DNA of 64,000 bases from contig DDWS01000004.1 of NCBI GenBank assembly GCA_002347685.1, positions 64,360-128,359 on the forward strand, written 5' to 3'. The translations under genes were made by a program, and so were the position numbers. This document shows, piece after piece, positions 18,652 to 42,124 of this stretch. The stretch comes from Syntrophaceae bacterium UBA2280 (GTDB taxonomy: Bacteria; Desulfobacterota; Syntrophia; Syntrophales; Smithellaceae). The notes under the pieces are model-generated. The model made no database searches, had not been told where the DNA came from, and worked only from the letters and a program-made list of their open reading frames with translations. Positions within the stretch are counted from its first letter, which is position 1, and each line of letters starts with the position of its first letter.

Positions 18652-18671
18652 GTGAGTGAGTGAGTGAGTGA
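18652..18671. repeat. (GTGA)5 tetranucleotide microsatellite
   Basis: Read directly: GTGAGTGAGTGAGTGAGTGA, about 50 nt upstream of the acyl-CoA ligase start codon. Confidence 0.95.
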
Positions 18672-18722
18672 GAAGAAGGCTCTGAAGAATTGGCGTCACA
18701 GACAAGATGAAGGAGGAACAAA

Positions 18723-20402
18723 ATGTCGTTTGATAGATTATGGCACAAATCCTATGCTTCAAGTGTTTCTGGGGAAATCAATCTTGAAAAAATCACGATG
18801 GCGGAAGTTCTGACGAGAACAGCGGGCAAATATCCGGACCGAATTGCTTTCATTTACATGGGTAAGAAGATTACCTATCGAGAATTGGAAAAATTGGTAA
18901 ACCGTTTTACCCGGGCATTGATCGACGTCGGAGTGCGGGAAGGAGACAAGGTGGCAGTTCTCCTGCCCAACATACCGCAGATAATCATTGCCGATCATGC
19001 CGTCTATCGTGTGGGGGCTGCGACCACCATGAACAATCCGCTTTATACGGAGCGGGAATTAACCCACCAGCTCAATGATTCGGATGCCACCATCCTGGTA
19101 ACGTTGGATCTTCTGCTTCCCCGGGTGCTCAAAATCAAGAACGAAACAAAGATCAAGAAAATCATTACCTGCCATATCAGTGACTATCTGCCCTTTCCCA
19201 AGAAGCAGCTTTTTCCCTATGTAAAAAAGACAATGTTCAGAAAGGTGGAACCGCAGCCGGACGTTTATGAATTTATGGATCTTATTGCTAAATATTCCGA
19301 TGCACCGGTGGAAAACAAGGCAAAGTGGGATTCGCTGGCCGCTCTTATCTACACCGGGGGAACGACTGGTGTCAGCAAGGGCGCTATGTTGACCCATGCC
19401 AATATCTCATCAATTGTCCAGCAGTTCTCCGCATGGTTTCCCGATCTAAAGGGCACATACCAGAATCTCACGGGGATTTATCCCGTGTTTCATTCCGCCG
19501 GGTATTCGGTAAGCCAGAACCTTCCTATCTGGAATGGCTGGGGCTGCACGCTGGTGCCAAAACCGGAACCGGAAGTTATCGTCGAAATGCTTGAAAAGTA
19601 CCGGCCGACATTCCTTACCGGTGTGCCCACTATTTATACGGCACTGCTGGGCAATGAAAAATTCCGGAAGATGGATCTTTCCTTTGTGACGGGATATTTT
19701 GGAGGGGCGGCGCCCCTGCCGGAAAACACACTGAATCAGTTGAAAGAACTCCACGGGGCAATCATCTATGATGTTTACGGCGCTACTGAGAATACGGCAT
19801 TTGCAACGACTACTCCCTGGGGTGGGAAGGTAAAAATCGGGACAGTGGGACTTCCGCTTCCCAACACGGATATTAAAGTCGTGGATGTTGAGACCGGCAC
19901 CAAGGGACTCCCCATCGGCGAAAACGGTGAAATTTGCATTAAAGGTCCCCAGGTGATGACCGGGTACTATAAAAAACCGGAAGAAACAGCGAATGCCCTC
20001 AAGGATGGATGGTTTTATACCGGAGACATCGGGTTCATCGATGAGGATGGGTACCTGACCATATCAGACCGCAAAAAGGACGTCATCGTGGCGAGCGGCT
20101 TCAATGTCTTTCCCAAAGAGATAGATGAAATCCTCTTCGAGCACCCCAGGATCAGCGAGGCCTGTTGTATAGGTATTCCTGACGAGTACAGGGGTGAAAC
20201 TGTAAAAGCTTTCATTGTGGCCAAGCCCGGAGAGACGCTGACGAAACAGGAGGTGACGGCCTTCTGCAAAGAGAGACTGACGGGCTACAAGGTTCCCACA
20301 GAGGTGGAATTTATTGAAGAGCTTCCCAAGAGTGCGATTGGCAAGATCATGCGTCGCGAACTGAGGGAGATGGATAAGAAAAAAAGGGAGAAAGTGTCAT
20401 GA
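18723..20402 (+). CDS. long/medium-chain acyl-CoA ligase (AMP-forming)
   Basis: It has the AMP-binding motif IYTGGTTGVSKGAMLTH, plus YGATE, GDIG..DEDGYL.I.DRKKD and a terminal GKI.RREL. Confidence 0.9.
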   Translation: MSFDRLWHKSYASSVSGEINLEKITMAEVLTRTAGKYPDRIAFIYMGKKITYRELEKLVNRFTRALIDVGVREGDKVAVLLPNIPQIIIADHAVYRVGAATTMNNPLYTERELTHQLNDSDATILVTLDLLLPRVLKIKNETKIKKIITCHISDYLPFPKKQLFPYVKKTMFRKVEPQPDVYEFMDLIAKYSDAPVENKAKWDSLAALIYTGGTTGVSKGAMLTHANISSIVQQFSAWFPDLKGTYQNLTGIYPVFHSAGYSVSQNLPIWNGWGCTLVPKPEPEVIVEMLEKYRPTFLTGVPTIYTALLGNEKFRKMDLSFVTGYFGGAAPLPENTLNQLKELHGAIIYDVYGATENTAFATTTPWGGKVKIGTVGLPLPNTDIKVVDVETGTKGLPIGENGEICIKGPQVMTGYYKKPEETANALKDGWFYTGDIGFIDEDGYLTISDRKKDVIVASGFNVFPKEIDEILFEHPRISEACCIGIPDEYRGETVKAFIVAKPGETLTKQEVTAFCKERLTGYKVPTEVEFIEELPKSAIGKIMRRELREMDKKKREKVS

Positions 20403-21205
20403 GTGCGTTGATTCCGGAATTCAAGACATTGCTCTTCGAAGAAAAAGAACCGCACATTGGCGTGGTGACCATGAACCGTCCCCGGCAGCTCAATGCCATC
20501 AACCTGGATATGCTCATCGACTTCGAAAGGCTGTTTCAGGTATTGTCTGAGAAAGATTCCATCAGGGTTCTCATCATCACGGGCGCCGGCAAGGGGTATT
20601 CTTCGGGCGCTGATCTCAATGATGCAGTGATCTACAAGGAGTCCGAAGCGTTTGCGGATCCTGAAAAGTTCTTGAAACTCGTGCAGGAACGATACGCCGC
20701 CCTGATTCTGGGCATGAGAAGGATTCCCCAGCCGATTATATCGGCCGTGAACGGACCGGCCGCCGGAGGAGGTTTTTCCATGACGCTTGCCAGCGATATC
20801 CGGGTGGCGTGCAAAGAAGCCTATTTTGTGGCCTCTTTCATTAATATCGGGCTTTCCGGTGGTGAACTGGGATGCTCTTTTTTGCTGCCCCGGCTGGTGG
20901 GGCTCGCGCACGCTTCCGACATTCTGCTTACCGGCAGGAAGATCGGGGCACAGGAAGCTGAAAAAATAGGTCTCATCAATAAGCTGGTTTTGCGGGATGA
21001 TCTTCTGGAAACAGCGCTCGCCTATGGAAGATTGATGGCATGCAAAAGCGTGGGAGGCCTGAAGCTCACCAAGCGGGTTCTGAGTGAAAATATTACGGCT
21101 CCGTCGCTGGAAAGTGCGGTGAACCTGGAAAACCGAAACCAGACCATCATGGTTTTTTCAGGCGAGTTTTTCAAGCTGGTCGGGCAATTTTGTAAAGAGC
21201 CATGA
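20399..21205 (+). CDS. enoyl-CoA hydratase (crotonase family)
   Basis: The motifs are VLIITGAGKGYSSGADL and PIISAVNGPAAGGGFS. It has an ATGA overlap with the upstream gene. Confidence 0.9.
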   Translation: MSALIPEFKTLLFEEKEPHIGVVTMNRPRQLNAINLDMLIDFERLFQVLSEKDSIRVLIITGAGKGYSSGADLNDAVIYKESEAFADPEKFLKLVQERYAALILGMRRIPQPIISAVNGPAAGGGFSMTLASDIRVACKEAYFVASFINIGLSGGELGCSFLLPRLVGLAHASDILLTGRKIGAQEAEKIGLINKLVLRDDLLETALAYGRLMACKSVGGLKLTKRVLSENITAPSLESAVNLENRNQTIMVFSGEFFKLVGQFCKEP

Positions 21206-21297
21206 TCAGCTTCACTCGCCGTTCCAGGGGTAAAACGAAAATGACCACGACAAAACGAAACATATGGGAAAGTTTCTCGTAGAGGAGAATGTGTGTA

Positions 21298-23166
21298 ATG
21301 CAGAAGTATCTGGTTGATCATCGTGATTTGCAGTTTGCCTTGTTCGAATTTCTGGAAGTGGACAAAATGAACAGCTTCCAGCGTTATGAAAATTTTGATC
21401 GTGGCGTATACGAGGAAACGATCCGCCTGGCCGAAAGGATTGCGGCGGAATCGGTTTTCCCGGCGAATGTGACCGGGCACAGGGAGGGATGCCATTATGA
21501 TCCGCAAACCAGATCTGTGCGATTACCCTCGGGGTATCAAGCTGCGGCCAAGGCGCTCTTTGATGCGGGATTCTTAAGTATTGCCGATGACCAGGACATC
21601 GGAGGAGCAGGGATGCCGCTGGCCATCCAGTCGTGTGCCTGGGAAATATTTTGCGGGGCCGGCGGAGCACTAATGCTTTTTTTCATGCTGGGGCACGGGG
21701 CAGCTCATTTAATCCATAGTTTCGGGACCCCAAAACAGAAGTCCCGCTATGTGAAAAAGCTTCTTTCCGGTGAATGGGGCGGAACCATGTGCCTTACGGA
21801 ACCGGAGGCAGGCTCCGATGTGGGGGCTTTGAAAACAAAAGCCGTCCTGCAGTCCGACGGATCGTATAGAATTACCGGGCAAAAGTGTTTCATTACCAAC
21901 GGAGACCAGGACGTCACCCGCCAGATTGTCTATCCGGTTCTGGCCCGCATTGAAGGGGACCCGCAGGGAACCAAAGGGATTTCCATATTCATCGTCCCCA
22001 AGTATCTGGTCAATGATGATGGGACCCTGGGAGAAAGAAACGATGTGTTCTGCACCGGCGTGGAGCATAAGATGGGCGCCCACGGATCGGCGACCTGCGC
22101 CATGTCCTTTGGTGAAGATGAATGCTGTACGGGTTATCTGCTGGGCGAGCGGGGCCGCGGTATGAATATCATGTTTCAGATGCTCAATGAAACAAGACTC
22201 GAGGTCGGCATTATGGCGTTGGGAGGTTCCTCCGCAGCTTTACAGTGTGCCGTTGATTACGCGCGCACCCGACTGCAGGGGGTTCACTTCAGCCGGATGT
22301 TCGATACGGACGCTCCTAAAGTTCCCATCATTGAACATCCCGATGTCACGAGAATGCTGATGGGAATGAAGGGCTGCGTCGAGGCGGAACGGATGCTGTC
22401 CTATTATGTGGCAAAGCAGATCGACCTGGCCAGGCTGCTCGAAGGGGAAGCAAGCCGGGAAGCCCGGGCCCTGGTCGATATTCTCATCCCCCTGGTCAAG
22501 GCGGGCAATTCGGAAAATGCATGGCAGATCACTGCCGAAGCGATACAAGTCCACGGGGGATATGGCTATTGCTCGGATTATCCCGTAGAGCAGCTTGCGG
22601 TGGACTGCAAGGTTCTGAGCATTGTCGAAGGAACAAACGGCATCCAGTCGCTGGATCTGGTCATGAGGAAGATCCTGTTGAATTCCGATCAGAAGAATTA
22701 CAAAGTTTTAAAATCAAGAATGTTACAGACGATCGAAAACGCATCCGGTATCGTCGACGACGTTTACCGGAATATGCTCCTTACGGGGCTTGAACGGATG
22801 GATTCCATTTTGGATTCCATGAAAAAGCATATGGATGCGGGGCGATATCATACGCTGCTCATCAACGTTGATCCCGTGCGCAGGGCCTTTTTCGATTTGA
22901 TGCTTGCCTGGATGCACATGTGGTGTCTGATGCTGGCGCGCCCGAAGCTTTCCGCGCTTACGGCCGGTGCAGAAGGTGAGGCACTGGCGGGAGTCCTTGC
23001 CCGGGATGCAGAGGCGGCTTTCTATTATGGCAAGGTATGCGCGTCGGAATTCTGGCTGGCGTCTGAGTTCCCGAAATATTTTGGGAAAATGGATGGAATA
23101 TCGCTTAGTGAAAAAATTGATTTCCTGCCCGGGAATGCGGTTTTTTCTTCTCATCCTTGTTCGTGA
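21298..23166 (+). CDS. large acyl-CoA dehydrogenase (about 620 aa, extended C-terminal domain)
   Basis: It has GTMCLTEPEAGSD, KCFITNGD and VHGGYGY motifs. ATG 21298 has better Shine-Dalgarno spacing than 21289. Confidence 0.85.
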   Translation: MQKYLVDHRDLQFALFEFLEVDKMNSFQRYENFDRGVYEETIRLAERIAAESVFPANVTGHREGCHYDPQTRSVRLPSGYQAAAKALFDAGFLSIADDQDIGGAGMPLAIQSCAWEIFCGAGGALMLFFMLGHGAAHLIHSFGTPKQKSRYVKKLLSGEWGGTMCLTEPEAGSDVGALKTKAVLQSDGSYRITGQKCFITNGDQDVTRQIVYPVLARIEGDPQGTKGISIFIVPKYLVNDDGTLGERNDVFCTGVEHKMGAHGSATCAMSFGEDECCTGYLLGERGRGMNIMFQMLNETRLEVGIMALGGSSAALQCAVDYARTRLQGVHFSRMFDTDAPKVPIIEHPDVTRMLMGMKGCVEAERMLSYYVAKQIDLARLLEGEASREARALVDILIPLVKAGNSENAWQITAEAIQVHGGYGYCSDYPVEQLAVDCKVLSIVEGTNGIQSLDLVMRKILLNSDQKNYKVLKSRMLQTIENASGIVDDVYRNMLLTGLERMDSILDSMKKHMDAGRYHTLLINVDPVRRAFFDLMLAWMHMWCLMLARPKLSALTAGAEGEALAGVLARDAEAAFYYGKVCASEFWLASEFPKYFGKMDGISLSEKIDFLPGNAVFSSHPCS

Positions 23167-23248
23167 GGTCGCAGGGAAGAATTCGGATTGCCGCCCGGTG
23201 ACAGGATGGATAAGGTATGTCGGGCTGAAATACTCAAGGAGGATTTAC

Positions 23249-24232
23249 ATGAAAACGGCAATAACTGAGATGTTTGGTATCAAGTATCCCATTATCTGTG
23301 GGGCGATGATGTGGCTTTGCAAGCCGACACTGTGCGCGGCGATTTCCAATGCAGGGGGGATGGGAAATCTTACTGCCGCCAATTATGAAACGGAACAGGA
23401 TTTCCGCAATGCGATCCTGGAGACACGAAAGCTTACCGACAAGCCGTTCATGGTGGGCGTGACCATTCTTCCCTCGGTGCGCATAACACCCGGACATCAC
23501 CAGATGTACCTGCGGGTCTGCGCGGAAGAAAAAGTGGCGGGAATCGAGGTTTCCGGTGCTCCTGTAGATAAGGGGGTGGGACCGGAATATATCGACCTGC
23601 TGAAAAAAGCAGGCGTTAAGCTCTTTCACAAGGTGGGATCGGTACGTCATGCCCTGCATGCGGAGAAGGCGGGCTACGATGGCATCTACGCCGCCGGCAT
23701 CGAGGAAGGCGGTCACCCGTTGGACGATGATGTCACAACCATGGTGTTGACCCCCCGCATTGCCGAATCCGTGAGAATACCTGTGGTGACGGTGGGGGGT
23801 ATTGCCAACGGAAAGTCCCTCGCGGCGGCTCTGTCGCTTGGCGCGGAGGGAGTTATGATGGCCAGCCGTTTCCTTGCGACCAAGGAGTGTGTGGTTCACG
23901 AAAATATCAAACAGGAAATTGTAAGACGTCAGGAACACGAAACCACGCTAATCTGCAAAACCCTTCACCTGCAGGGTCGGGCCCTCAAGAACCAGGTGGT
24001 CCGGGAAATATGTGAAATCGAGGAAAAAGGAGGGGGATTTGAGGCTCTTTATCCCCTCATTGCAGGTGATCGAATGAAACAGGCATGGGATGATGGCGAT
24101 GTCGATGTTGCTCCCATGATGGTGGGGCAATCCATCGGGCTCATCAAGGATGTGCCCACCTGCCAGGAGCTGATGCAGCGAATGGTGAAAGAGGCGCAGG
24201 AAACGCTGGCGAGGGCAAGCAAGCTGTTTTAG
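23249..24232 (+). CDS. nitronate monooxygenase / FabK-like FMN enoyl reductase family protein
   Basis: The motifs are FGIKYPIICGAMMW...ISNAGGMG and VTVGGIA.G....AL.LGAEGV. A Shine-Dalgarno (AAGGAGG) precedes ATG 23249. The longer ORF from 22967 overlaps the upstream dehydrogenase. Confidence 0.85.
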   Translation: MKTAITEMFGIKYPIICGAMMWLCKPTLCAAISNAGGMGNLTAANYETEQDFRNAILETRKLTDKPFMVGVTILPSVRITPGHHQMYLRVCAEEKVAGIEVSGAPVDKGVGPEYIDLLKKAGVKLFHKVGSVRHALHAEKAGYDGIYAAGIEEGGHPLDDDVTTMVLTPRIAESVRIPVVTVGGIANGKSLAAALSLGAEGVMMASRFLATKECVVHENIKQEIVRRQEHETTLICKTLHLQGRALKNQVVREICEIEEKGGGFEALYPLIAGDRMKQAWDDGDVDVAPMMVGQSIGLIKDVPTCQELMQRMVKEAQETLARASKLF

Positions 24233-24526: not shown

Positions 24527-25798
24527 ATGGGATCAAGTGAGGAAATCCGTTTTGATGGTCGAGTGGCCATCGTCACTGGCGCGGGTGGCGGACTGGGGCG
24601 TGTGTACGCCCTTGAGTTTGCGAGGCGGGGTGCAAAAGTAGTGGTCAATGATTTTGGCGGCGCCAGGGATGGTTCCGGCAAAGGAGCGGCAGGTCCGGCG
24701 GATAAAGTCGTTGATGAAATTAAAGCGTTGGGAGGAGAATCTGTTGCCAACTATGACAATGTCGCGACGGCAGATGGAGGGGCAAACATCGTCAAGACAG
24801 CCGTTGATGCCTTCGGGAAGGTTGACATCCTGATAAACAATGCGGGCATTCTGCGGGACAAGGGCATTCTCAAAATGGAGCCGGAAAACTGGCAGGTTGT
24901 TCTTGATGTTCATCTGAACGGGGCCTTCAATGTGACGCGTCCGGCTTTCAGTGTCATGCGGGACAATGGTTTCGGCCGGATCATCATGACGACATCTGCC
25001 GCAGGGCTTTACGGCAATTTCGGTCAGAGCAATTACTCCTCAGCCAAGTTGGGTATTGTCGGTTTTATGAACTCCCTGAAGCTCGAGGGGGTGAAGTACA
25101 ACATTAAAGTAAACACGGTGGCACCCATTGCCGCATCCCGGCTCACGGAGGACATTCTGCCCCCCGATCTGCTGGCCAAGATGAATCCGGATTATGTTGC
25201 CCCTATCGTCCTCTATCTCTGCTCGGAGGAATGCGGCGACACCGGCAGGATTTTCAATTGCGGCGCAGGATTTTACAATCGTGTCGCCGTGATGACGAGC
25301 CCCGGTGTCGTCGTCGGAGGCGGCAAGAAAATTCCTTCCCTTGAGGACGTTTCCGCCAACTGGGCGAAAATCATGGATTTCAAGGGTGCCAAGGAATACG
25401 GACAATTGAACGACCTGGTTCTTCAAGATCTCCTTTCGGCTTTGGAGGAAAAGAAAGAATCGGCCCAGGGCGGCGGATTCACTGTCGTGAAGGATGTCTT
25501 TGAAAGAATGCCCGGCGCCTTTCAGGCCGGCGGGGCGGGAGGAGCAGCAGTTGTTTTCCAGTACTGCATCTCCGGTGGCGGCGGCGGTGATTGGTCTGCC
25601 GATATCAGGGACGGTGCGTGTACCGTGACTTCCGGCATCCATGGAAGCCCGACCTGTACGCTGAAGATCAGTGCAGAGGATTTTCTTGACCTGATGAACG
25701 GCAAGGTAAACGCCATGAAGGCTTATACTTCGGGAAAACTGAAGATCGAAGGGGATATCATGAAATCCCAGCTACTGGAGAAAATCTTCAAATTTTAA
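24527..25798 (+). CDS. MFE-2-type (D-specific) 3-hydroxyacyl-CoA dehydrogenase SDR fused to a C-terminal SCP2 domain
   Basis: FDGRVAIVTGAGGGLGRVYALEFARRGAKVVVNDFGG and YSSAK are the signature of the 17beta-HSD4/MFE-2 dehydrogenase subfamily. The C-terminus (DFLDLMNGK.NAMKAYTSGKLKIEGDIMKSQ) is SCP2-like. Confidence 0.85.
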   Translation: MGSSEEIRFDGRVAIVTGAGGGLGRVYALEFARRGAKVVVNDFGGARDGSGKGAAGPADKVVDEIKALGGESVANYDNVATADGGANIVKTAVDAFGKVDILINNAGILRDKGILKMEPENWQVVLDVHLNGAFNVTRPAFSVMRDNGFGRIIMTTSAAGLYGNFGQSNYSSAKLGIVGFMNSLKLEGVKYNIKVNTVAPIAASRLTEDILPPDLLAKMNPDYVAPIVLYLCSEECGDTGRIFNCGAGFYNRVAVMTSPGVVVGGGKKIPSLEDVSANWAKIMDFKGAKEYGQLNDLVLQDLLSALEEKKESAQGGGFTVVKDVFERMPGAFQAGGAGGAAVVFQYCISGGGGGDWSADIRDGACTVTSGIHGSPTCTLKISAEDFLDLMNGKVNAMKAYTSGKLKIEGDIMKSQLLEKIFKF

Positions 25799-25868: not shown

Positions 25869-28589
25869 ATGATTGGAATTACATCATACGGAGCCTATAT
25901 CCCACGCCTGCGATTGGACAGAATGGCGATTTATCAAGCTTTGGGCTGGTTCGCTCCGGCGCTGATCAGTGTGGCCCAGGGCGAACGTTCCATGTGCAAT
26001 TATGATGAGGATAGTCTGACGATGGCTGTTGCCGCGTCCATGGATTGTTTAATTGGAAAAGACAAAAAAAAGATAGATGCAGGATACCTCTGTTCCACGA
26101 GCCTGCCTTTCCTTGATCGCCAGAATGCCGGCATTATGACCACAGCTCTGAATCTGCGGAGCGACATGAATACGGCGGATTTCACGTCTTCCCAGCGGGC
26201 GGGTACGACCGGTCTGTTGACCGCCCTGGATGTCGTCAAATCGGGGAACCGAAAATCCATCCTGGTTACCGCGTCCGACAAAAGGCAGACCCGTCCTGCC
26301 GCCTTTTACGAGATGTGGTTCGGCGACGGCGCAGCGTCCGTCCTGGTCGGAGACGAAGACGTTGTGGCTGAATTCCTGGGTTCGTATTCCCTGACCTATG
26401 ATTTTGTCGATCATTACCGGGGATCCAAATCAGAGTTCGACTACACATGGGAAGAACGGTGGCTCCGTGAAGAAGGCTATGGCAAGATTATTCCCGAAGC
26501 GGTCAACGGCCTGTTCAAGAAGTTGAATATCACGATGAATGACGTGCAAAAACTGGTCTTTCCCTGTTTCTTCAAGGCGGAACACAAGGCGATCGGGAAG
26601 AAGTTGGGGGCCACTCCGGACAAACTGGCCGATACACTGCACGAGGTCACCGGAGAGACCGGCGTTGCGCATTCTCTGCTGATGCTTGTCGGGGCGCTCG
26701 AAACGGCAAAGCCGGGAGACGGCATCCTTGTGGCTGGTTTTGGACAGGGGTGTGACGCTCTCTATTTCAAGGTAACTGAAAACATAAATAAATTGGCCGA
26801 TCGCGCGGGGCTCAAAGGATCGCTGGCCTGCAAGAAGACCACGGACAACTACATGAAGTTCCTGAAATTCCGGGAACTGATCAATCCGGAGATGGGAATC
26901 CGGGCGGAAGCACCGGTGCAGACGACCATGACGGCCCTGTGGCGGAACCGGAAAATGATCCTCGGGTTTGTTGGTGGAAAATGCCGGGATTGCGGAACGG
27001 CTCAGTTTCCCCCGGCGGATCTTTGTGTGAATCCGGCATGCGGTCATACCGGAACACAGGACGATTACGAATTCGCCAACGTCAAGGCCAGGGTCCGCTC
27101 GTTTACGGGAGATCTGCTGGCCGTGTCGGTTGATCCCCCGGCGATTTACGGAATGGTGCAGTTTGAGGGTGGTGGCCGGCAAGTGATGGATTTCACGGAC
27201 AGCGAGTTGAACGACATCAAAATCGGTATGCCCGTCAAGATGTCTTTCCGGAGACGAGTCGTGGACACGGTCCGGGGATTTTCACAATACTTCTGGAAAG
27301 CCGTTCCTCAGACGGACTGGACGCCGGAAATCGATTTTAATGGGCGGGTGGCTATTGTAACAGGCGCCGGTGGTGGTTTGGGCCGCGCTTATGCCTTGGA
27401 ACTGGGTCGCCGCGGAGCAAAGGTTGTTGTGAACGATTTCGGAGGCGCACGCGACGGTTCGGGATCAGGGGCCGCCGGGCCCGCGGACATGGTTGTTGAG
27501 GAGATCAAGGCCATGGGAAGCGAAGCCGTTGCCAATTACGATAACGTCGCCACGCCGGAAGGCGGTCAAAAGATCGTGAAAACGGCCCTGGACGCTTTCG
27601 GCAAAGTCGATATTCTCATCAACAACGCCGGCATTCTCCGGGATAAAGGCATCCTGAAGATGGAGCCGGAAAACTGGTCGGCCGTTCTCGCCGTCCATCT
27701 CAACGGCGCCTATAATGTGACGAGGCCGGCTTTTGAGGCCATGCGGAACAATGGGTTCGGCCGTATCATCATGACAACATCTGCGGCAGGTCTTTATGGT
27801 AACTTCGGCCAGACGAATTATTCCTCAGCCAAACTGGGGGTTGTCGGATTCATGAATACGCTGAAGCTGGAGGGCGCTAAATACGATATCAAAGTCAACA
27901 CCATCGCTCCCATTGCTGCGTCCCGCTTAACGCAAGACATGATGCCGCCGGAGATGCTCCAGAAAATGAATCCGGATTACGTTGCAGGTATCGTCCTGCA
28001 TCTGTGTTCCGAAGATTGCAAGGATTCCGGTAATATCTTCAATGCAGGGGCTGGATTCTTCAGCCGGGCGGCTATATTGACCGGGCCCGGCGTGATGCTG
28101 GGTGACGACACGCATGTGCCGACGCCGGAAATGATTCGCGACAACTGGGAAAAGATCAATAGCATGGAAGGGGCGAAACCCTATACGGAACTCAATATGG
28201 CCATTATGGAATTTCTGACGCCGTCCGCAGCTGGTGCCCCGGTTGCAGGAGGTGGCGCCAGCGGTCTGGACGTCGCAGGGGTCTTCAAGCAAATGCCCTC
28301 TGTTTTCAATTTGGCGGCGGCTGCCGGCAAGGATGTGACCTTCCAGTTCAATATCTCCGGTCCGACAGGCGGGGATTGGTTTGTCGCCGTCAAGGATGGA
28401 ACGTGCAGCGTCACGGTCGGGAAGGGAGACAATCCCACGACAACCATCGGCATAGCCGATACGGATTTTGTTGACCTGATTACCGGAAAGCTTGACGGCA
28501 TGAAGGCCTTCAGCGCCGGAAAACTGAAGGTCGGCGGAGACATGATGAAATCCCAGCTTATCGGAAAGCTGTTCAAATTCAATCAATGA
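25869..28589 (+). CDS. four-module fusion: HMG-CoA-synthase/KAS-III-like thiolase fold + DUF35 (Zn-ribbon/OB) + MFE-2-type SDR + SCP2
   Basis: Residues 1 to about 345 (IGITSYGAYIPR.R......WFGDGAA) are HMGCS-like. CRDCGTAQFPPADLCVNPACGH plus an OB segment is DUF35-like. From about nt 27330 the protein is a near copy of the 24527 SDR-SCP2 protein. Confidence 0.85.
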   Translation: MIGITSYGAYIPRLRLDRMAIYQALGWFAPALISVAQGERSMCNYDEDSLTMAVAASMDCLIGKDKKKIDAGYLCSTSLPFLDRQNAGIMTTALNLRSDMNTADFTSSQRAGTTGLLTALDVVKSGNRKSILVTASDKRQTRPAAFYEMWFGDGAASVLVGDEDVVAEFLGSYSLTYDFVDHYRGSKSEFDYTWEERWLREEGYGKIIPEAVNGLFKKLNITMNDVQKLVFPCFFKAEHKAIGKKLGATPDKLADTLHEVTGETGVAHSLLMLVGALETAKPGDGILVAGFGQGCDALYFKVTENINKLADRAGLKGSLACKKTTDNYMKFLKFRELINPEMGIRAEAPVQTTMTALWRNRKMILGFVGGKCRDCGTAQFPPADLCVNPACGHTGTQDDYEFANVKARVRSFTGDLLAVSVDPPAIYGMVQFEGGGRQVMDFTDSELNDIKIGMPVKMSFRRRVVDTVRGFSQYFWKAVPQTDWTPEIDFNGRVAIVTGAGGGLGRAYALELGRRGAKVVVNDFGGARDGSGSGAAGPADMVVEEIKAMGSEAVANYDNVATPEGGQKIVKTALDAFGKVDILINNAGILRDKGILKMEPENWSAVLAVHLNGAYNVTRPAFEAMRNNGFGRIIMTTSAAGLYGNFGQTNYSSAKLGVVGFMNTLKLEGAKYDIKVNTIAPIAASRLTQDMMPPEMLQKMNPDYVAGIVLHLCSEDCKDSGNIFNAGAGFFSRAAILTGPGVMLGDDTHVPTPEMIRDNWEKINSMEGAKPYTELNMAIMEFLTPSAAGAPVAGGGASGLDVAGVFKQMPSVFNLAAAAGKDVTFQFNISGPTGGDWFVAVKDGTCSVTVGKGDNPTTTIGIADTDFVDLITGKLDGMKAFSAGKLKVGGDMMKSQLIGKLFKFNQ

Positions 28590-28601
28590 GGAGGTGGTGT
28601 T

Positions 28602-29816
28602 ATGGCTTCAGGAATCAGAGATAAAGTCGCTATTATCGGCATGGGATGCAGCCGGTTCGGAGAGCGATGGGATATAGGAGCCGAGGGGCTGATGGTGGAG
28701 GCCTTTCAGGAAGCGCTTGTGGATGCAGGCCTTGAAACGAAGGATATCCAGGCGGCCTGGTACGGGGTTTGTATGGATGAGGTCAATGTAGGCAAGGGAG
28801 CTCCGTCGATGAGTATGGCCCTTCGTCTGCCCAACATTCCCGTTTCCAGAATGGAAAACTATTGCGCCACGGGCACGGAAGCGTTTCGCGGCGCCGTCTA
28901 TGGTGTCGCGTCCGGTGCCTATGATATTTGTCTGGCCCTTGGCGTTGAGAAGTTGAAGGATACAGGGTACGGAGGTCTCCCTGCATGGGGGTCAACGGCG
29001 GGAACCCTCATGTGGCAGTTCTTTCCCAATGCGACGGCGCCGGGACTTTTTGCCCAGCTTGCTTCTGCCTATGTCGCCAAATACAAGATTCAAAATGAGG
29101 ACATCAAACAGGCCATCGCCCATGTCTCGGTGAAAAGCCACGCGAATGGTGCTTTGAATCCCAAGGCTCATTTGCGGAAAGTGGTTACCATGGATCAGGT
29201 TCTGGCGGCCCCGATCATCGCCTGGCCTTTAGGATTGTTCGACTGTTGCGGTGTCAGCGACGGTTCGGCCTGTGCCATTGTGACAACACCGGAAATCGCC
29301 CAGAAACTGGGCAGAAAAAAGAAAGACCTGGTTACGGTCAAGGCCGTTCAGCTGTCTGTCAGCAATGGTTATGAAGGTAGCTTCAATGAATGGGACGGAA
29401 CGAATTTCGTCACCACGGACAAATGTGCGACAGCCACCTATAAGGAAGCCGGAATCACGAACCCGCGAGAGGAGATCAGCATGTTCGAATGTCATGACTG
29501 TTTCTCCATCACGGAACTCGTGACGTATGAGGATCTCCACCTCTCCGAGCGGGGCCAGGCCTGGAAAGATGCTTTAAACGGCATGTACGACCGGGACGGT
29601 AAAATCCCGGCCCAGATCGATGGAGGCCTCAAGTGTTTCGGACACCCCATCGGGGCCTCGGGGCTGCGGATGATTTATGAAATGTACCTGCAGCTTCAGG
29701 GACGGGCGGACAAGCGTCAGCTCGAAAATCCGCGCTACGGTTTGACACACAACCTGGGTGGTTTCCCTCACCAGAACGTGTGCGCTATTTCCATCGTAGG
29801 AATGTATGGAAAGTAA
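28602..29816 (+). CDS. SCPx-type thiolase (lipid-transfer-protein-like thiolase, Ltp family)
   Basis: It has the nucleophile context MENYCATGTEAF and the C-terminal segments GGLKCFGHPIGASG and NLGG. Such thiolases typically partner with DUF35 proteins. Confidence 0.9.
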   Translation: MASGIRDKVAIIGMGCSRFGERWDIGAEGLMVEAFQEALVDAGLETKDIQAAWYGVCMDEVNVGKGAPSMSMALRLPNIPVSRMENYCATGTEAFRGAVYGVASGAYDICLALGVEKLKDTGYGGLPAWGSTAGTLMWQFFPNATAPGLFAQLASAYVAKYKIQNEDIKQAIAHVSVKSHANGALNPKAHLRKVVTMDQVLAAPIIAWPLGLFDCCGVSDGSACAIVTTPEIAQKLGRKKKDLVTVKAVQLSVSNGYEGSFNEWDGTNFVTTDKCATATYKEAGITNPREEISMFECHDCFSITELVTYEDLHLSERGQAWKDALNGMYDRDGKIPAQIDGGLKCFGHPIGASGLRMIYEMYLQLQGRADKRQLENPRYGLTHNLGGFPHQNVCAISIVGMYGK

Positions 29817-29882: not shown

Positions 29883-29957
29883 ATCCTCCGACAGGATCAG
29901 TTTCTGCGGAGATGTCGGAAGCGTCATGACAATGAATGTTGACGAGGAGACAGATTG

Positions 29958-31100
29958 ATGGATATTATCAAATACACGGATGAACACCGAATGTTCCGGG
30001 ATACTTTTCGGAAATTCGTTACGAATGAACTGCTTCCCCATGTCGAGGAATGGGAAGAGGCCGGTATTGTTCCCAAAAGCGCCTGGAAGAAAATGGGGGA
30101 GCACGGATTTCTGGGCATGTCCGTTCCGGTGGAATACGGCGGCGCGGGAGCGGATTTTCTGTATTCGGTGATTGTCACCGAAGAATTGTCGCATTCAAAT
30201 TTTGCGGGACTTGCGGCCCCCCTGCATACCGATATCGTTGTCCCTTACCTCATTTCCTTCGGTTCTGAAGAGCAGAAGCATAAATATCTTCCCGGTTGCG
30301 TCACCGGAGATATCATCACGGCGGTGGCTATGACGGAACCCAATACCGGCAGCGACCTTGCCGCTATTAAAATGACAGCTGTGGAGGACGGAAATGACTT
30401 TGTCCTGAATGGCCAGAAAACCTTTATCAGCAACGGAATCAATTGTGATCTGTGCATTGTGGCGGCAAAAGATCCGGCAGGTACTGACCCCCATAAGGCG
30501 GTGGATCTTTACATTGTGGAGGCCGGTACTCCCGGCTTTGAGAAGGGCAGGCAGATTAAAAAAGCCGGCTGGCACAGCCAGGATACGTCCGAGCTGTATT
30601 TCACGGACTGCAGGATTCCCAAAGGTAACCGTCTGGGCGAAAAGGGGACCGGGTTTGTGAAGCTTATGATGAAGCTTCAACAGGAGCGTCTGGTTGTTGC
30701 CATCTGTGGCATTGCGGCCGCCGAATACATGCTGGAGACAACCATCAAGTATTGCCGGGAACGGACGGTTTTCGGAAAGCCCGTCTCCAAGTTTCAGGTC
30801 AATCAGTTCACCCTTGTGGAAATCGCCACGGAGATCCGGATCGGTCGGACCTTTGTCGACAAGCTGATTGTGGATCATATGGAGGGACAGCAGGTCATTA
30901 TCGAGACGTCGATGGCTAAATACTGGATCACGGACATGGCCCACCAGGTTGCGGACAGATGCCTGCAACTGCATGGAGGGTATGGGTACTGCGATGAATA
31001 CGGGATTTCGCGGGCCTGGCGCGACAGCCGGGTGAGCCGGATCTTCGCCGGAACCAATGAAATCATGAAAGTTATTATTGCCCGGTTTATGGGATTATAA
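29958..31100 (+). CDS. acyl-CoA dehydrogenase (about 380 aa, short/medium/branched-chain type)
   Basis: It has AMTEPNTGSD, FISNG and LHGGYGY motifs. ATG 29958 sits 7 nt after GAGGAGA. Confidence 0.9.
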   Translation: MDIIKYTDEHRMFRDTFRKFVTNELLPHVEEWEEAGIVPKSAWKKMGEHGFLGMSVPVEYGGAGADFLYSVIVTEELSHSNFAGLAAPLHTDIVVPYLISFGSEEQKHKYLPGCVTGDIITAVAMTEPNTGSDLAAIKMTAVEDGNDFVLNGQKTFISNGINCDLCIVAAKDPAGTDPHKAVDLYIVEAGTPGFEKGRQIKKAGWHSQDTSELYFTDCRIPKGNRLGEKGTGFVKLMMKLQQERLVVAICGIAAAEYMLETTIKYCRERTVFGKPVSKFQVNQFTLVEIATEIRIGRTFVDKLIVDHMEGQQVIIETSMAKYWITDMAHQVADRCLQLHGGYGYCDEYGISRAWRDSRVSRIFAGTNEIMKVIIARFMGL

Positions 31101-31110
31101 AGGGGGGAAT

Positions 31111-32292
31111 GTGCCCGGACCACTTGAAGGATTGAAAATTCTCGACTTTACGACTCTTTTGCCGGGGCCATATGCAACCATGACCCTTGCCGATTTGGGG
31201 GCGGATGTCCTATCTGTCGTTTCAGGAAGCCGGCCCGACTTGGCTGCTATCACGCCGCCGTTCATCACAGGAACGGACTTGTCCGTTGCATCGGCTTATC
31301 TGGGTCGTGGGAAGATGTCCATTACGCTCAACCTGAAAGATTCGCGGGCTATACAGATCATCAATCGTCTTCTGGGGGAGTATGACATTCTCATTGAGCA
31401 GTTCCGTCCGGGGGTGATGTCGAAGTTCGGCTTGGGCTTTTCCCAGATCGGGGAGAAATACCCGTCCCTGATCTATTGCTCCCTGACGGGATATGGCCAG
31501 ACGGGACCGCTGAAAGACAGAGCGGGTCACGACATCAATTATTTATCCCTCTCGGGACTCATGAGCTATGCGGGGCGCAAAGAAGGCGGGCCCGTTCCTA
31601 TGCCCATGCAGATTGCCGATGTGGCTTCGGGGTCGAATAGTGCAATCATCGCCATCCTGGCCGCAGTCATCCACAGGCAGAAGACAGGGAAGGGACAACA
31701 TCTCGACATATCCATGACGGACGGGGTTTTCGCTTTCAATGCCCTGGCCGCTGCGGCTTGTCTGGCGGCAGGCGAAATCCCGGAAAGGGAGGGTTTTATC
31801 CTCAATGGTGGGTCCCTTTACGATTTTTATAAGACGGCGGACAACCAATATCTGGGGTTCGGGGGCATGGAACCGCAGTTCTTTGCCGCCTTCTGCCAGG
31901 CGATCGGGCGTCCCGATTTGATTGCCGGCGGGTTTATGCCGCCGGATCTGTCCAGGGTTAAGGAGGAGATACGGACTGTGATCCGCGGGAAAACCAAGGC
32001 GGAATGGGAACGCATTTTCGACAAGGTGGAAGCCTGCGTAGAACCGGTGATTTCTCTGCCGGAGGCAATGAACAGCGCTCTGGCCAGGGAACGGGGATGG
32101 ACGGTTGAGGTCACTTTACCCGATGGAGGCACCGTGAGGCAGCCGACTTGTCCCTTCAAATTTTCAGCAACGCCCGTTGCGTACGGTAATACGGGCGTAA
32201 AGGCAGGAACGCACAACAGGAAGGTTTTCCTTGATCTGGGATATGGCGAGGAAGAGATCGATGAATTCCAGAGGACAGGACTTCTTTCGTGA
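31111..32292 (+). CDS. family III CoA-transferase (CaiB/BaiF) / alpha-methylacyl-CoA racemase-like
   Basis: GPLEGLKILDFTTLLPGPYATMTLADLGADV and GHDINYL are typical of the family. GTG 31111 is preceded by AAGGGGGG. Confidence 0.85.
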   Translation: MPGPLEGLKILDFTTLLPGPYATMTLADLGADVLSVVSGSRPDLAAITPPFITGTDLSVASAYLGRGKMSITLNLKDSRAIQIINRLLGEYDILIEQFRPGVMSKFGLGFSQIGEKYPSLIYCSLTGYGQTGPLKDRAGHDINYLSLSGLMSYAGRKEGGPVPMPMQIADVASGSNSAIIAILAAVIHRQKTGKGQHLDISMTDGVFAFNALAAAACLAAGEIPEREGFILNGGSLYDFYKTADNQYLGFGGMEPQFFAAFCQAIGRPDLIAGGFMPPDLSRVKEEIRTVIRGKTKAEWERIFDKVEACVEPVISLPEAMNSALARERGWTVEVTLPDGGTVRQPTCPFKFSATPVAYGNTGVKAGTHNRKVFLDLGYGEEEIDEFQRTGLLS

Positions 32293-32339: not shown

Positions 32340-32813
32340 ATGGCAGACAAAACAAAAGCAGGGATGGTGTTTCCCCCTTATACCTTTGAGGTGGAAAAGG
32401 GAAAGATCGCCGAGTTCGCTATGGCCGTTTCGCAGAAGGAGAGCAAGGGCCAGGTGAAACAAATTTATGCCGATTCCGGGAAGGCAAAGGAGGCGGGTTA
32501 CACGGATATTGTTCCAACGTCCACGTTTCAAACATGCTTTTTGCTCTGGGGGGGTGGGGGATTGATGCCCATGCTGCAGGACGTCGGTATCGACCTGGTC
32601 AGGCTGCTTCATGGTGAGGAAGAGTATGAATATCTGCTCCCCATTCATCCGGGCGATGTCATGACCGGGGTTACCAAGGTTGTCGAGATGTATGACAAGG
32701 AGAAGAAGGGCAAGCCGGGGAAATTCATGGAGTTTACTGTTCTGGAAGCGGAAATCAGAAATCAGCGTGGGGAACTGGCGATTCGCGCCCGCACAACTTT
32801 AGTGGAGAGATAG
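32340..32813 (+). CDS. MaoC-N / FAS1-like hotdog subunit (non-catalytic half of a heteromeric R-hydratase)
   Basis: It has hot-dog fold length. YTFEVEKGKIAEFA....LLHGEEEYEY resembles ChsH1/HadA-type partners. Confidence 0.7.
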   Translation: MADKTKAGMVFPPYTFEVEKGKIAEFAMAVSQKESKGQVKQIYADSGKAKEAGYTDIVPTSTFQTCFLLWGGGGLMPMLQDVGIDLVRLLHGEEEYEYLLPIHPGDVMTGVTKVVEMYDKEKKGKPGKFMEFTVLEAEIRNQRGELAIRARTTLVER

Positions 32814-32822
32814 GAGGAGGCC

Positions 32823-33275
32823 ATGACGAAAACATTAACGTATGAGAGTATATCCGTTGGCGACGCGATGCCGACATTTATATCGGATCCCATTACCCGG
32901 ACCCATCTGGTCCGCTATGCCGGAGCATCGGGAGACTTCAATCCCCTCCACCATGATGAGACGTTTGTCAAGCTGTTCGGGATGCCGCGGGTGATTTCTC
33001 ACGGGATGTTCGTGATGGGTATCGTCGGGCAGGCCATCACGGATTGGATCGATGACAAAAATTTGCGTAAATTCGGCGTTCGGTTTTCCGGAATGACGGA
33101 ACCCATGGATATGGATGACCAGAATTCAAAGGAGAGAGCAACGATCGTCGTAACCGGCACGGTGGTTGAAAAGTATGAGATCGACGGAGAGAAAGTAATG
33201 CGTTGCGAAATCAATGCAGCGGACAAACAAGGAAGCGTGAAACTGACGGGATCCTTTGTTGCGGCTCTGTCGTAA
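32823..33275 (+). CDS. MaoC-like (R)-specific enoyl-CoA hydratase subunit
   Basis: It has the hydratase-2 motif RYAGASGDFNPLHHDE....G....ISHGM. Confidence 0.85.
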   Translation: MTKTLTYESISVGDAMPTFISDPITRTHLVRYAGASGDFNPLHHDETFVKLFGMPRVISHGMFVMGIVGQAITDWIDDKNLRKFGVRFSGMTEPMDMDDQNSKERATIVVTGTVVEKYEIDGEKVMRCEINAADKQGSVKLTGSFVAALS

Positions 33276-33290
33276 AAAAGATCACATGAA

Positions 33291-33317
33291 CCGCTCCCGG
33301 CAACTTACCGGGAGCGG
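33291..33317 (+). terminator. 10-bp perfect GC-rich hairpin (CCGCTCCCGG caactta CCGGGAGCGG) with a weak U-tract
   Basis: Read directly, 16 nt after the MaoC stop codon. Confidence 0.4.
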
Positions 33318-33721
33318 CATGATTTACAGGAATGACCATGTCGAAGTTCTTTCCTCTCGAACGGTTGAGTGCGGGATACTTCCTGAGGATGCCGGCATCT
33401 CTTTTCCTGCTGCTGTTGGAAAGAATACCCAAAGAGGCAAAGCAAATGTTGGGGATATGGGATCGAAATTAAAAGCAACGGTATTTCATCAAGCATGTCC
33501 TGCTGGAAGTGGACGCAGCGGTCACATCCATCAAGAGCGAGGATCTCTCGATGGTCGATATTCCAGAAGAAAGTTTTGCTGTTTAGAATTAGACAGATGT
33601 CGTTTATCGTCGATGGCAGTTTCTTGACCATTTGATTATCCGATCATGTCCGGCATCATCGATATCCGGGGGAAGACAGGCATGATCATCAAACAGACGA
33701 TTCTTGAGGAGAACATGATAA

Positions 33722-34171
33722 ATGATTGAGGAAAAGTATCAAGAGCATGTCAAAATGCTTTCGACCATCGTCAAGATCATCGAAAAAATGGGCATCCGTA
33801 TCGTGGAGATGCGGGATCGCTATGTCAAGGTTCTTTTGCCGCTTGAGCCAAACATCAACCATATCGGGACGATCTATGCCGGTTCTCTCTTTTCGGTAGG
33901 CGAGTATATTGCCGGCCCGATTTTTGTTGCTTCTTTTGATTATACAAAATTCTATCCCATCGTCAAAGCCATCAACGTCCAATTCTGCCGACCGGCAACA
34001 ACAGATGTGACGGTGGAAGTGATGCTGAGTGAGGCCGAGGCCGATGCCATCCAGCGTGAGGTTGAAGCAAAGGGGAAGGCCGACTGGAAAATGGATCTGG
34101 AAGTCAAGAACCAGGCCGGGGAGATTTGCTGTCTCCTCCAAGGGGTATGGCAACTGAGAAAATGGAAGTGA
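33722..34171 (+). CDS. hotdog-fold thioesterase (YiiD C-terminal / PaaI-like)
   Basis: Its size and the segment LPLEPN.NHIGTIYAGSLFSVGEY fit the family. Assigned from memory of the family pattern only. Confidence 0.6.
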   Translation: MIEEKYQEHVKMLSTIVKIIEKMGIRIVEMRDRYVKVLLPLEPNINHIGTIYAGSLFSVGEYIAGPIFVASFDYTKFYPIVKAINVQFCRPATTDVTVEVMLSEAEADAIQREVEAKGKADWKMDLEVKNQAGEICCLLQGVWQLRKWK

Positions 34172-38125: not shown

Positions 38126-38135
38126 GGGAGGGGAT

Positions 38136-42122: not shown

Positions 42123-42124
42123 CT

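Follow-up and report, generated by a model that had tools for sequence, protein, structure and literature searches.

A four-module fusion of a tetrad-less HMG-CoA synthase-like domain, DUF35, a dehydrogenase and SCP2 as a putative thiolase-docking subunit of R-specific β-oxidation

Introduction

Which task could a single protein perform that carries, one after another, a 3-hydroxy-3-methylglutaryl-CoA synthase (HMGS)-like domain, a DUF35 module, a dehydrogenase and a lipid-binding domain? The question is raised by a 64,000-nucleotide stretch of contig DDWS01000004.1 from Syntrophaceae bacterium UBA2280, to which all coordinates refer and which, at its full length, we call the window. Its positions 25869..28589 (+) form one open reading frame (ORF) of 906 amino acids (aa), running from ATG to TGA with zero internal stops in the translation. 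A preliminary description of this DNA had seen four modules in one continuous ORF, had assigned the protein to the last steps of β-oxidation and had treated the HMGS-like module as a possible enzyme. As detailed below, the first of these statements is borne out by translation, Pfam and PDB matches, and the second is supported by the intact catalytic residues of dehydrogenase and neighbouring thiolase as well as by a context of acyl-CoA dehydrogenases and ligases; the third had to be given up, as the catalytic tetrad is replaced in 51 relatives. We therefore consider it probable, though by no means settled, that the fusion is a non-catalytic thiolase-docking subunit which carries a working dehydrogenase and an SCP2 domain, and which takes part in degradative, R-specific β-oxidation.

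Results

The four-module fusion and its distribution

The modules of the 906-aa protein follow each other in the order HMGS/KAS-III-like, DUF35, MFE-2-type short-chain dehydrogenase/reductase (SDR) and SCP2, and are delimited as follows.

25869..28589 (+): complete four-module ORF (pseudo-HMGS, DUF35, MFE-2-type SDR, SCP2); from the ORF list, translation and Pfam
25869..26888 (+): aa 1-340, domain of the HMG-CoA-synthase/KAS-III fold, predicted to be catalytically dead; from PDB matches and tetrad columns
26889..26933 (+): aa 341-355, HMGS-DUF35 connector; bounded by the 6esq_I and 6esq_E matches
26934..27314 (+): aa 356-482, DUF35 module (Zn-ribbon and OB fold); from Pfam and 6esq_E
27315..27335 (+): aa 483-489, DUF35-SDR linker, short and variable in length; from the alignment
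27336..28238 (+): aa 490-790, MFE-2-type SDR, a predicted (3R)-hydroxyacyl-CoA dehydrogenase, with C-terminal extension; from PDB matches and motifs
28239..28304 (+): aa 791-812, SDR-SCP2 tether, Ala/Gly/Pro-rich, probably flexible; from identity profile and insertions
28305..28586 (+): aa 813-906, SCP2 lipid-binding domain; from Pfam

Among the Pfam models, ACP_syn_III_C matches aa 217-295 with 29.1 bits (cut-off 26.6) and ACP_syn_III stays under its cut-off (19.6 vs 24), zf-ChsH2 covers aa 367-392 (29.1 vs 23.2), adh_short aa 493-682 (E = 3e-41), and SCP2, PF02036, aa 823-903 (59.9 bits vs 21.3, E = 3e-16). The Zn-ribbon motif quoted in the preliminary description, CRDCGTAQFPPADLCVNPACGH, was found at aa 372-393. 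As a whole, the fusion passes no curated NCBIfam cut-off.

A search over 5.8 billion proteins, with clusters from NCBI, JGI, ENA and Logan assemblies, yielded more than 120 protein clusters of identical architecture, about 905-930 aa in length and 63-93% identical to the fusion. When one representative genome per species was scanned, 230 stretches were found to encode relatives of the fusion, nearly all of them in Thermodesulfobacteriota and the closest, at 92-94%, in Smithellaceae/Smithella metagenome-assembled genomes (MAGs); the carriers comprise Smithellaceae, Syntrophaceae/Syntrophus, Desulfobacterales including Desulfonema, and the Olavius Delta-1 and Delta-4 symbionts. For frame and neighbourhood counts, 80 related loci were fetched; for column counts, 51 four-module relatives were aligned. 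The N- and C-terminal halves adjoin each other in one frame in 80/80 loci, the ORF measures at least 880 aa in 71/77 testable loci and is shorter in 6/77, some four-module loci lie on megabase-size contigs, and M1 is invariant across the aligned relatives. The proviso that the junctions might be artefacts and the real locus a set of separate genes was thus contradicted by the frames in 80/80 loci, the more than 120 clusters and the 230 stretches.

One locus with a deviating structure belongs to the isolate genome of Desulfothermus okinawensis JCM 13304 (L145), where, at about 8001-9442, the HMGS-like/DUF35 frame stops after 227 codons and the homology goes on. This interrupted gene is flanked by an SDR on its upstream and a thiolase on its downstream side; a frameshift, a pseudogene or an error in sequencing could each account for the break.

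Loss of the catalytic tetrad in the HMGS-like domain

Residues 2-334 of the fusion find their top PDB match in PhlA (9skh_A, 7e-35; 5m3k_A, 8e-29), and match the archaeal HMGS 6esq_I at 9e-28. The catalytic tetrad of the latter, E82-C114-H238-N270 in a numbering that we counted in the alignment and that agrees with the mutant in PMC12960953, aligns with T77, Q109, P232 and E263 of the fusion. Across the four-module relatives, T77 and P232 are found in 51/51, position 109 is occupied by Gln in 28 and Leu in 23 and never by Cys, and position 263 by Glu in 49 and Asp in 2. The curated NCBIfam HMGS models are not reached by the fusion either (NF003274 / TIGR00748, 201.7 vs a cut-off of 244 and 134.1 vs 353).

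An exhaustive HMMER search with aa 1-489 returned 2,972 representative relatives, of which 592 reach E <= 1e-30; the majority are stand-alone HMGS-like proteins with DUF35, about 465-495 aa long. A cysteine at the nucleophile position occurs in 0/119 divergent stand-alone relatives, and the tetrad columns vary freely there. We also considered a relocated active site within the pseudo-HMGS domain, and disfavour it: the invariance of C43 and C233 is limited to the four-module clade and does not extend to the wider family. What is conserved family-wide, to at least 95%, are structural Gly and Pro residues, a D46-E47-D48-T51 motif, the Zn-ribbon and a Y474-x-W476-K477 motif, a pattern that fits a structural or interface role better than a relocated active site. 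Because all four tetrad positions are replaced, the domain should be incapable of condensation and would thus be a scaffold instead of a fourth activity; judged by its sequence, it is a catalytically dead pseudoenzyme rather than a condensing enzyme.

Such domains have been described. PhlA and MucA lack the E-C-H-N tetrad, and for PhlA/MucA and PfHMGS-DUF35 it was demonstrated experimentally that tetrad loss abolishes HMG-CoA synthesis (PMC12960953, Nat Commun 2026). In Pseudomonas fluorescens (Pf), a fused tetrad-less HMGS-DUF35 protein and an acetyl-CoA acetyltransferase (ACAT) with Cys, HDxF and GHx perform thiolysis of acetoacetyl-CoA only, yielding neither HMG-CoA nor acetoacetyl-CoA; the authors call this complex an evolutionary intermediate with no defined pathway, and report that 1,001 of 1,030 bacterial HMGS/ACAT/DUF35 loci are without biosynthetic neighbours (PMC12960953).

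Among the sequences with an HMGS-like N-terminus there is also P0226 (723 aa), whose further domains are of the ATP-grasp and molybdopterin-binding types; rather than a genuine architecture, this probably reflects a chimeric gene call or misassembly.

The partner thiolase

The gene that follows the fusion encodes the presumed partner.

28602..29816 (+): thiolase of the HDxF class, 404 aa, predicted to be catalytically intact; from Pfam Thiolase_C_1, PDB and NCBIfam NF004810

A Shine-Dalgarno sequence, GGAGGTGG at 28590..28597 (+), stands right after the TGA of the fusion and 4 nucleotides ahead of the thiolase ATG, an arrangement from which the two genes are predicted to be translationally coupled, and a thiolase lies directly 3' of the fusion in 55/58 four-module loci. 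Its PDB matches are 7yvy, an archaeal-type acetyl-CoA acetyltransferase (1.5e-56), 6esq_A (9e-51), BbsB (4e-40) and PhlC (9e-24), with SCP2-type thiolases also among its near relatives and the Ltp2-type 'lipid-transfer protein' 6ok1_A matching at only 1e-10; NF004810 is passed with 678.8 bits against a cut-off of 403. The neighbour had been announced as an SCPx-type thiolase, of which the adjacent thiolase holds true, whereas the protein is closer to the ACAT of the archaeal complex and to BbsB than to eukaryotic SCPx. As C88, H298-D-C-F301 and G347-H348-P349 are kept in 114/114 loci, the enzyme is, by its residues, catalytically competent and of the degradative Pf type rather than the PhlC/MucB acetyltransferase type.

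DUF35, dehydrogenase and SCP2 domains

Residues 356-482 match the archaeal DUF35 protein 6esq_E at 1.4e-10 over chain residues 4-129 of 130. The Zn-ribbon cysteines C372, C375, C386 and C391 are present in 51/51 four-module relatives and in 107-114/120 family-wide, and the OB fold ends in the family-wide Y474-x-W476-K477 motif mentioned above. The connector that precedes the module (aa 341-355) has invariant E341, G343, I344, R345, E347 and Q351, and is probably structured, given this high conservation. By comparison, the linker to the SDR shows little conservation and differs in length by 0-5 residues between relatives (alignment columns 488-498); being short, about 7 residues, it should hold the dehydrogenase near the adaptor.

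The C-terminal half of the fusion matches the (3R)-hydroxyacyl-CoA dehydrogenases of MFE-2 proteins, namely those of Candida (2et6_A, 1e-130) and human HSD17B4 (1zbq_A, 1e-91; 1gz6_A, 4e-91), and since the alignment with 1zbq spans chain residues 28-320, the MFE-2 C-terminal extension is present as well. Invariant in 51/51 relatives are TGxGxxLG (498-505), NNAG (585-588), S638, Y651, K655 and N522-D523; of the latter pair, D523 lines up with the Asp in the 'VVVND' strand of MFE-2 dehydrogenases, the NAD-selecting position of classical SDRs. The domain is thus most likely an active NAD-dependent (3R)-hydroxyacyl-CoA dehydrogenase. It is joined to SCP2 by a tether of variable length with insertions and a mean identity of 0.36, as opposed to 0.68-0.77 within the domains.

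The C-terminal modules vary between relatives. Two tandem C-terminal SCP2 domains are found in P0039, P0047 and P0094 (1015-1033 aa), P0039 and P0094 being four-module proteins with a duplicated SCP2. P0122 (722 aa) reads HMGS-like-DUF35-SCP2-SCP2 and has no SDR, and P0129 (800 aa) reads HMGS-like-DUF35-SDR and has no SCP2.

Stand-alone relatives

The family is dominated by stand-alone HMGS-like + DUF35 forms of about 480 aa, which occur in unclassified bacteria, Adiutricales, Desulfobacteraceae, Hyphomicrobiaceae, Porticoccaceae/Pseudomonadales and a Spirochaetota MAG. These homologues, including those of Pseudomonadales, are 44-58% identical to the N-terminal half of the fusion. In essentially all of their loci a thiolase follows directly that is 63-72% identical to the window thiolase, and many of the loci are adjoined, just upstream or right after the thiolase, by a separate gene for an MFE-2-type SDR. 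This recurring association, together with the shuffling of modules, indicates that scaffold, thiolase, SDR and SCP2 act together.

The surrounding gene cluster

The fusion and its thiolase are embedded in a larger set of β-oxidation genes, all on the same strand; the first five entries were assigned with Pfam and NCBIfam.

17756-18562 (+): crotonase
18723-20402 (+): acyl-CoA ligase
20399-21205 (+): crotonase
21289-23166 (+): acyl-CoA dehydrogenase (ACAD) of 625 aa
22967-24232 (+): NMO/FabK-like flavoprotein
24527..25798 (+): stand-alone SDR-SCP2 paralogue, 423 aa; from Pfam and alignment to the fusion
29955..31100 (+): ACAD, 381 aa, long-chain-ACAD-like; from Pfam and PDB
31078..32292 (+): Family-III CoA-transferase-fold protein; from Pfam CoA_transf_3 and PDB
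32340..33275 (+): two hot-dog genes, 32340-32813 FAS1_DH/MFE-2-hydratase-2-N-like and 32823-33275 MaoC; from Pfam

The core that is conserved across loci consists of a TetR gene (46/61), an SDR-SCP2 gene directly upstream of the fusion (68/69), the fusion, the thiolase (55/58) and an ACAD gene after it (46/53). The product of the latter, 381 aa in the window, matches 2pg0 at 2.5e-142 and the human long-chain ACAD (LCAD) at 7e-100. The gene families of the five accessory β-oxidation genes upstream of the core are found downstream of it, and in other order, in other genomes.

The 423-aa paralogue is 66% identical, without gaps, to the C-terminal half of the fusion. In most other genomes, a long form of about 703 aa takes its place, with MFE-2_hydrat-2_N and MaoC, SDR and SCP2, that is, a complete bacterial MFE-2 by Pfam; the short paralogue is 65% identical to aa 284-702 of this long form, and by this comparison is an orthologue of the C-terminal 420 aa of a hydratase-2-SDR-SCP2 protein. 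Of the upstream genes, 40 encode 650 aa or more and 10 about 420 aa, the short version being confined to Smithellaceae-like relatives, which carry the two small downstream hot-dog genes instead. Because the C-terminal half of the fusion scores higher on other fusions than on the upstream paralogues in 62/68 loci, the duplication of SDR-SCP2 must be old. The hot-dog pair at 32340-33275 is a candidate heteromeric R-specific enoyl-CoA hydratase. Its origin by simple fission of the hydratase-2 of the long paralogue was considered and rejected, as identity to the MFE-2-like protein of locus L081 is only about 30% over 60-85 aa.

For the protein encoded at 31078, the top PDB match is the Mycobacterium tuberculosis α-methylacyl-CoA racemase (MCR) 1x74 at 2.6e-54, tied with SUGCT, and its score stays below every NCBIfam cut-off. 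Aligned with 1x74, it keeps the racemase motif GHDINY (H126-D127 of MCR) and the equivalent of Asp156; H126 and D156 form the catalytic His/Asp pair of MCR. By these residues, the product is probably an α-methylacyl-CoA racemase.

Further observations concern the outline of the cluster. The FabK-like ORF, which begins with GTG and is found in 8 loci, close relatives only, shares 200 nucleotides with the 3' end of the gene for the 625-aa ACAD; since the Pfam match begins only at residue 97, its true start probably lies further 3', near 23170-23250. The TetR gene of the window, 15020-15793 (-), lies some 9 kb further upstream and reads in the opposite direction, with the five additional β-oxidation genes (17756-24232) standing between it and the core, and the TetR homologue of most related loci lies on the same strand directly upstream of the core. 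Downstream, a 123-aa ORF at 33256-33627 has no Pfam match and overlaps the end of the MaoC gene, and 33722-34171 encodes a hot-dog protein that resembles DUF4442/YiiD_C thioesterases and is retained in 8 close relatives. The cluster closes with a CrtI/carotenoid-isomerase-family FAD oxidoreductase (36632-38125) and an FNR-like FAD/NAD/2Fe-2S reductase (38043-39293), a pair that recurs beside the core in the Desulfobacterales locus L081 and is fused into 918 aa in L082 (19904-22660); it may saturate or desaturate C=C bonds of unsaturated or isoprenoid acyl chains, drawing on an electron supply of its own. Scans for promoters and terminators over 16-35 kb stayed at chance level (20 vs 16.4 expected; 29 vs 20.1) and gave no operon boundaries.

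Outside the cluster, the window is ordinary chromosome, with cofactor and redox genes upstream and chemotaxis and flagellar genes downstream. An LplA/B-like lipoate ligase domain joined to DUF116 is encoded in the unrelated region 1185-9812, as are an FAD-dependent oxidoreductase, two radical-SAM proteins, a transaldolase-family protein, and a GlcD/GlcF-like pair made up of an FAD-linked oxidase and a CCG/4Fe-4S protein. The regions 41256-47627 and 57768-62357 hold clustered chemotaxis genes (CheR, HDOD, CheB, CheA-CheW fusion) and flagellar genes for FliF, FliG and a FliI-type ATPase; the host cell appears to be motile.

Discussion

A predicted docking subunit for the last steps of β-oxidation

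Taken together, these features suggest the following course of events. The N-terminal 480 residues would dock the thiolase, as in 6esq, 5m3k and the Pf complex; the fused SDR would oxidise (3R)-hydroxyacyl-CoA with NAD+ to 3-oxoacyl-CoA, which the partner thiolase would then cleave thiolytically, and SCP2 would bind the hydrophobic acyl chain via its flexible tether. NAD-linked oxidation of 3-hydroxyacyl-CoA is endergonic and thiolysis exergonic, which provides a rationale for coupling the two, especially in syntrophs. With the unfavourable dehydrogenase placed beside the favourable thiolase, proximity would pull the flux, to the benefit of syntrophs living near equilibrium, and this pull by thiolysis would mirror the archaeal complex, in which HMGS pulls an unfavourable condensation. 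The MFE-2-like paralogue, which in most genomes carries hydratase-2, may supply this activity and, more speculatively, could enter the complex by forming a heterodimer of SDR domains, since MFE-2 dehydrogenase domains dimerise. The remainder of a peroxisome-like R-specific cycle would be furnished by the operon, namely by this paralogue, the LCAD-like ACAD, the probable racemase, the ligases and TetR. On these considerations, intermediates may be channelled between fused dehydrogenase and thiolase and, given the gene content, the system would run in the catabolic direction. LCAD-like ACAD, racemase-like protein, MFE-2-type enzymes and SCP2 domains jointly recall the peroxisomal system for 2-methyl-branched and very hydrophobic acyl-CoAs, and by this analogy suggest long-chain and/or 2-methyl-branched acyl-CoAs as substrates, for instance those of isoprenoid- or alkane-derived methyl-branched acids.

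Several observations weigh against this interpretation or parts of it. The pseudo-HMGS domain is conserved among the 51 relatives to the same degree as the active SDR (mean identity 0.75 vs 0.77), which fits large interfaces, yet would equally fit an unrecognised activity. The physical complex with the thiolase is a prediction from homology and the Pf precedent, and stereospecificity and cofactor of the SDR are likewise predicted by homology. OB_ChsH2_C, on aa 407-461, falls slightly short of its gathering threshold (26.6 vs 27.1), and an AlphaFold2 model of the full-length fusion from the 51-sequence alignment was poor (mean predicted local distance difference test, pLDDT, 63.4; predicted template-modelling score, pTM, 0.40) and was left unused. 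The case for branched-chain substrates is weak, as the racemase-like gene is found downstream in 15/44 loci only and the hot-dog pair in 7/41, close relatives only. Finally, a reverse, synthetic direction is compatible with the data: R-specific SDR, MaoC and thiolase/DUF35 are the make-up of an anabolic archaeal system, and a FabK-like gene lies in the window.

Alternative explanations

It is this synthetic direction that survives best among the alternatives, although we consider it unlikely. The system would then be a synthase of the fatty-acid or reverse-β-oxidation kind, R-specific and independent of acyl carrier protein, in which the thiolase condenses and the fused SDR reduces the 3-oxoacyl-CoA, thereby pulling the Claisen condensation. 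Its component set equals that of the archaeal 'FAS complex' (KT, DUF35, R-specific SDR, MaoC dehydratase), and in Sulfolobus acidocaldarius the thiolase/DUF35 pair indeed recruits both an R-specific SDR and a MaoC dehydratase through non-covalent contacts; the ketoacyl-CoA reductase of that complex, however, is strictly NADPH-dependent (bioRxiv 10.1101/2024.07.05.601840), whereas the SDR of the fusion, albeit of the R-specific type too, has the invariant NAD-type Asp523 and no NADPH-type basic residue. An enoyl reductase could be seen in the FabK homologue at 22967, but this gene is limited to just 8 close relatives, and the neighbours of the core are ACADs (46/53 loci), acyl-CoA ligases and TetR. 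Syntrophales run CoA-ester pathways reversibly, which lends the synthetic direction some plausibility; the characterised fused complex, PfHMGS-DUF35/ACAT, did thiolysis and no condensation.

Marginally less probable still is a new catalysis by the HMGS-like domain through other residues, such as a retro-aldol/lyase, hydrolase or acyl-transfer reaction on β-branched intermediates, which would render the protein trifunctional. The SDR-like degree of conservation within the four-module clade would be explained in this way, and so would the invariant C43, C60, C233, H258, E263 and H268 close to the former active site. Moreover, thiolase-fold proteins without a nucleophile can be aldolases (Ltp2/Sal, PMC12329534), and an enzyme of the HMGS superfamily has been proposed to cleave a C-C bond at a tertiary alcohol in anaerobic limonene degradation. 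Across the 119 stand-alone relatives, however, the tetrad positions are free to vary and C43 and C233 are unconserved, and the homologous subunits PhlA, MucA and PfHMGS are non-catalytic. LrcC, the HMGS-superfamily protein of the limonene paper, is a separate case from the four-module protein.

Far more remote is an aldolase system for the side chains of steroids or bile acids, in which DUF35 would dock a retro-aldolase as in ChsH2(DUF35)/Ltp2 or Shy/Sal. The preliminary description had named ChsH2/Ltp2 among its relevant precedents. DUF35, MFE-2-type SDR, SCP2, MaoC hydratases and a racemase-like gene do occur in steroid side-chain degradation as well, but the precedent is a poor fit: the partner retains Cys88, HDCF and GHP in all 114 loci, is nearest to archaeal ACAT and BbsB with 6ok1_A trailing far behind, and DUF35 is joined here to an HMGS-like domain and not to a MaoC hydratase. 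That the fusion is an assembly or frameshift artefact of separate genes, as the 6 loci under 880 aa and the interrupted L145 might insinuate, is hardly credible in view of halves that stay in frame in all 80 independent assemblies, 71 of 77 ORFs of at least 880 aa, and more than 120 clusters from NCBI, JGI, ENA and Logan, including megabase contigs.

Returning to the docking subunit for degradative β-oxidation, it can be developed into a bolder proposal, about which we are doubtful. The fusion would here be the core of a third and self-contained type of β-oxidation multienzyme, apart from FadBA/trifunctional protein and from free MFE-2 with SCPx. Dead HMGS and DUF35 would keep the common CoA-binding chamber of the archaeal complex, so that the CoA-bound intermediate swings from the SDR to the thiolase unreleased, and the SDR would heterodimerise with the MFE-2-like paralogue and so recruit hydratase-2, the whole serving 2-methyl-branched or very hydrophobic acyl-CoAs, such as those of isoprenoid acids and alkane-fumarate products, in energy-limited anaerobes.

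Implications

In open-access text we found neither a published description of the four-module protein or its operon nor omics data on the protein, in agreement with the preliminary description, which knew of no characterised protein with this architecture. HMGS/ACAT/DUF35 is a recurring platform, employed in archaeal mevalonate synthesis and antibiotic acetylation, and present in an orphan class that in early 2026 had no defined pathway; to this class, the four-module protein gives a functional anchor in β-oxidation. The new element, as read from the sequence, is the covalent joining of a platform of known kind, inactive HMGS, DUF35 and thiolase, to the upstream dehydrogenase and a lipid carrier. 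The four-module protein occurs in some 230 species of sulfate reducers and syntrophs, by which fatty acids and hydrocarbons are mineralised in oil reservoirs, digesters and anoxic sediments. Should the complex assemble as proposed, it would represent an independent evolutionary route to coupling the unfavourable dehydrogenase of β-oxidation to thiolysis, and a clear example of a pseudoenzyme retained as an architectural element; a third type of β-oxidation complex, if true, would provide a physiological role for roughly 1,000 'orphan' bacterial HMGS/ACAT/DUF35 loci. For channeling studies, fusion and thiolase offer a two-gene, expressible target.

Comparison with known systems

Judged by sequence features, the closest precedent is the P. 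fluorescens complex of inactive HMGS-DUF35 and active thiolase, not ChsH2/Ltp2. The two systems, compared by anatomy, share a fused tetrad-less HMGS-DUF35 protein and an adjacent thiolase with Cys, HDxF and GHx. The Pf protein, however, ends after DUF35, whereas the fusion runs on into the MFE-2-type SDR and SCP2, and where the Pf complex has no pathway, fusion and operon point to R-specific β-oxidation.

The archaeal thiolase/HMGS/DUF35 complex, which had been put forward as a relevant precedent, proved to be one, as HMGS (9e-28), DUF35 (1.4e-10) and thiolase (9e-51) are all homologous to chains of 6esq. There, as would be the case here, an unfavourable step is coupled to a favourable one round a DUF35 adaptor. 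The archaeal complex, however, has a catalytic HMGS, is anabolic (mevalonate) and consists of separate polypeptides, in contrast to the predicted dead HMGS, the fused SDR and the catabolic context of the system described here.

The Friedel-Crafts acetyltransferases PhlACB (PpATase) and MucABC (SmaATase), more distant than the Pf complex, resemble the fusion in that PhlA is the best match of its first domain (7e-35) and the tetrad is likewise lost. In PhlC/MucB, HDxF has been lost and small-molecule acceptors are acetylated, whereas the window thiolase keeps HDCF; moreover, the DUF35 of PhlACB and MucABC is a separate protein with polyketide synthase or non-ribosomal peptide synthetase neighbours, and the one studied here is fused and has β-oxidation genes as neighbours. 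With the KT/DUF35/ACR/MaoC-HCD 'archaeal FAS complex' of S. acidocaldarius, which is also a close system, the operon shares the same set of activities. The Sulfolobus complex is non-covalent, has no HMGS-like domain, uses an NADPH reductase and is anabolic, as opposed to a fused NAD-type SDR among ACADs and ligases.

In eukaryotes, the peroxisomal MFE-2 (HSD17B4)/SCPx/AMACR system offers a parallel through its (3R)-dehydrogenase and C-terminal SCP2, with hydratase-2 found here in the paralogue of most genomes, a thiolase of the HDxF class related to SCP2-thiolases and a racemase-like gene. There, however, SCP2 is fused to the thiolase in SCPx, MFE-2 is physically unlinked to the thiolase, and neither pseudo-HMGS nor DUF35 is present. 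Lastly, the benzoylsuccinyl-CoA thiolase BbsAB and ChsH2-DUF35/Ltp2 show DUF35 as the partner of a thiolase-fold enzyme in β-oxidation-like catabolism, as we propose for the fusion, whose thiolase matches BbsB at 4e-40; BbsA, in difference, is DUF35 alone, and in ChsH2 the DUF35 is fused to a MaoC hydratase and docks a nucleophile-less aldolase.

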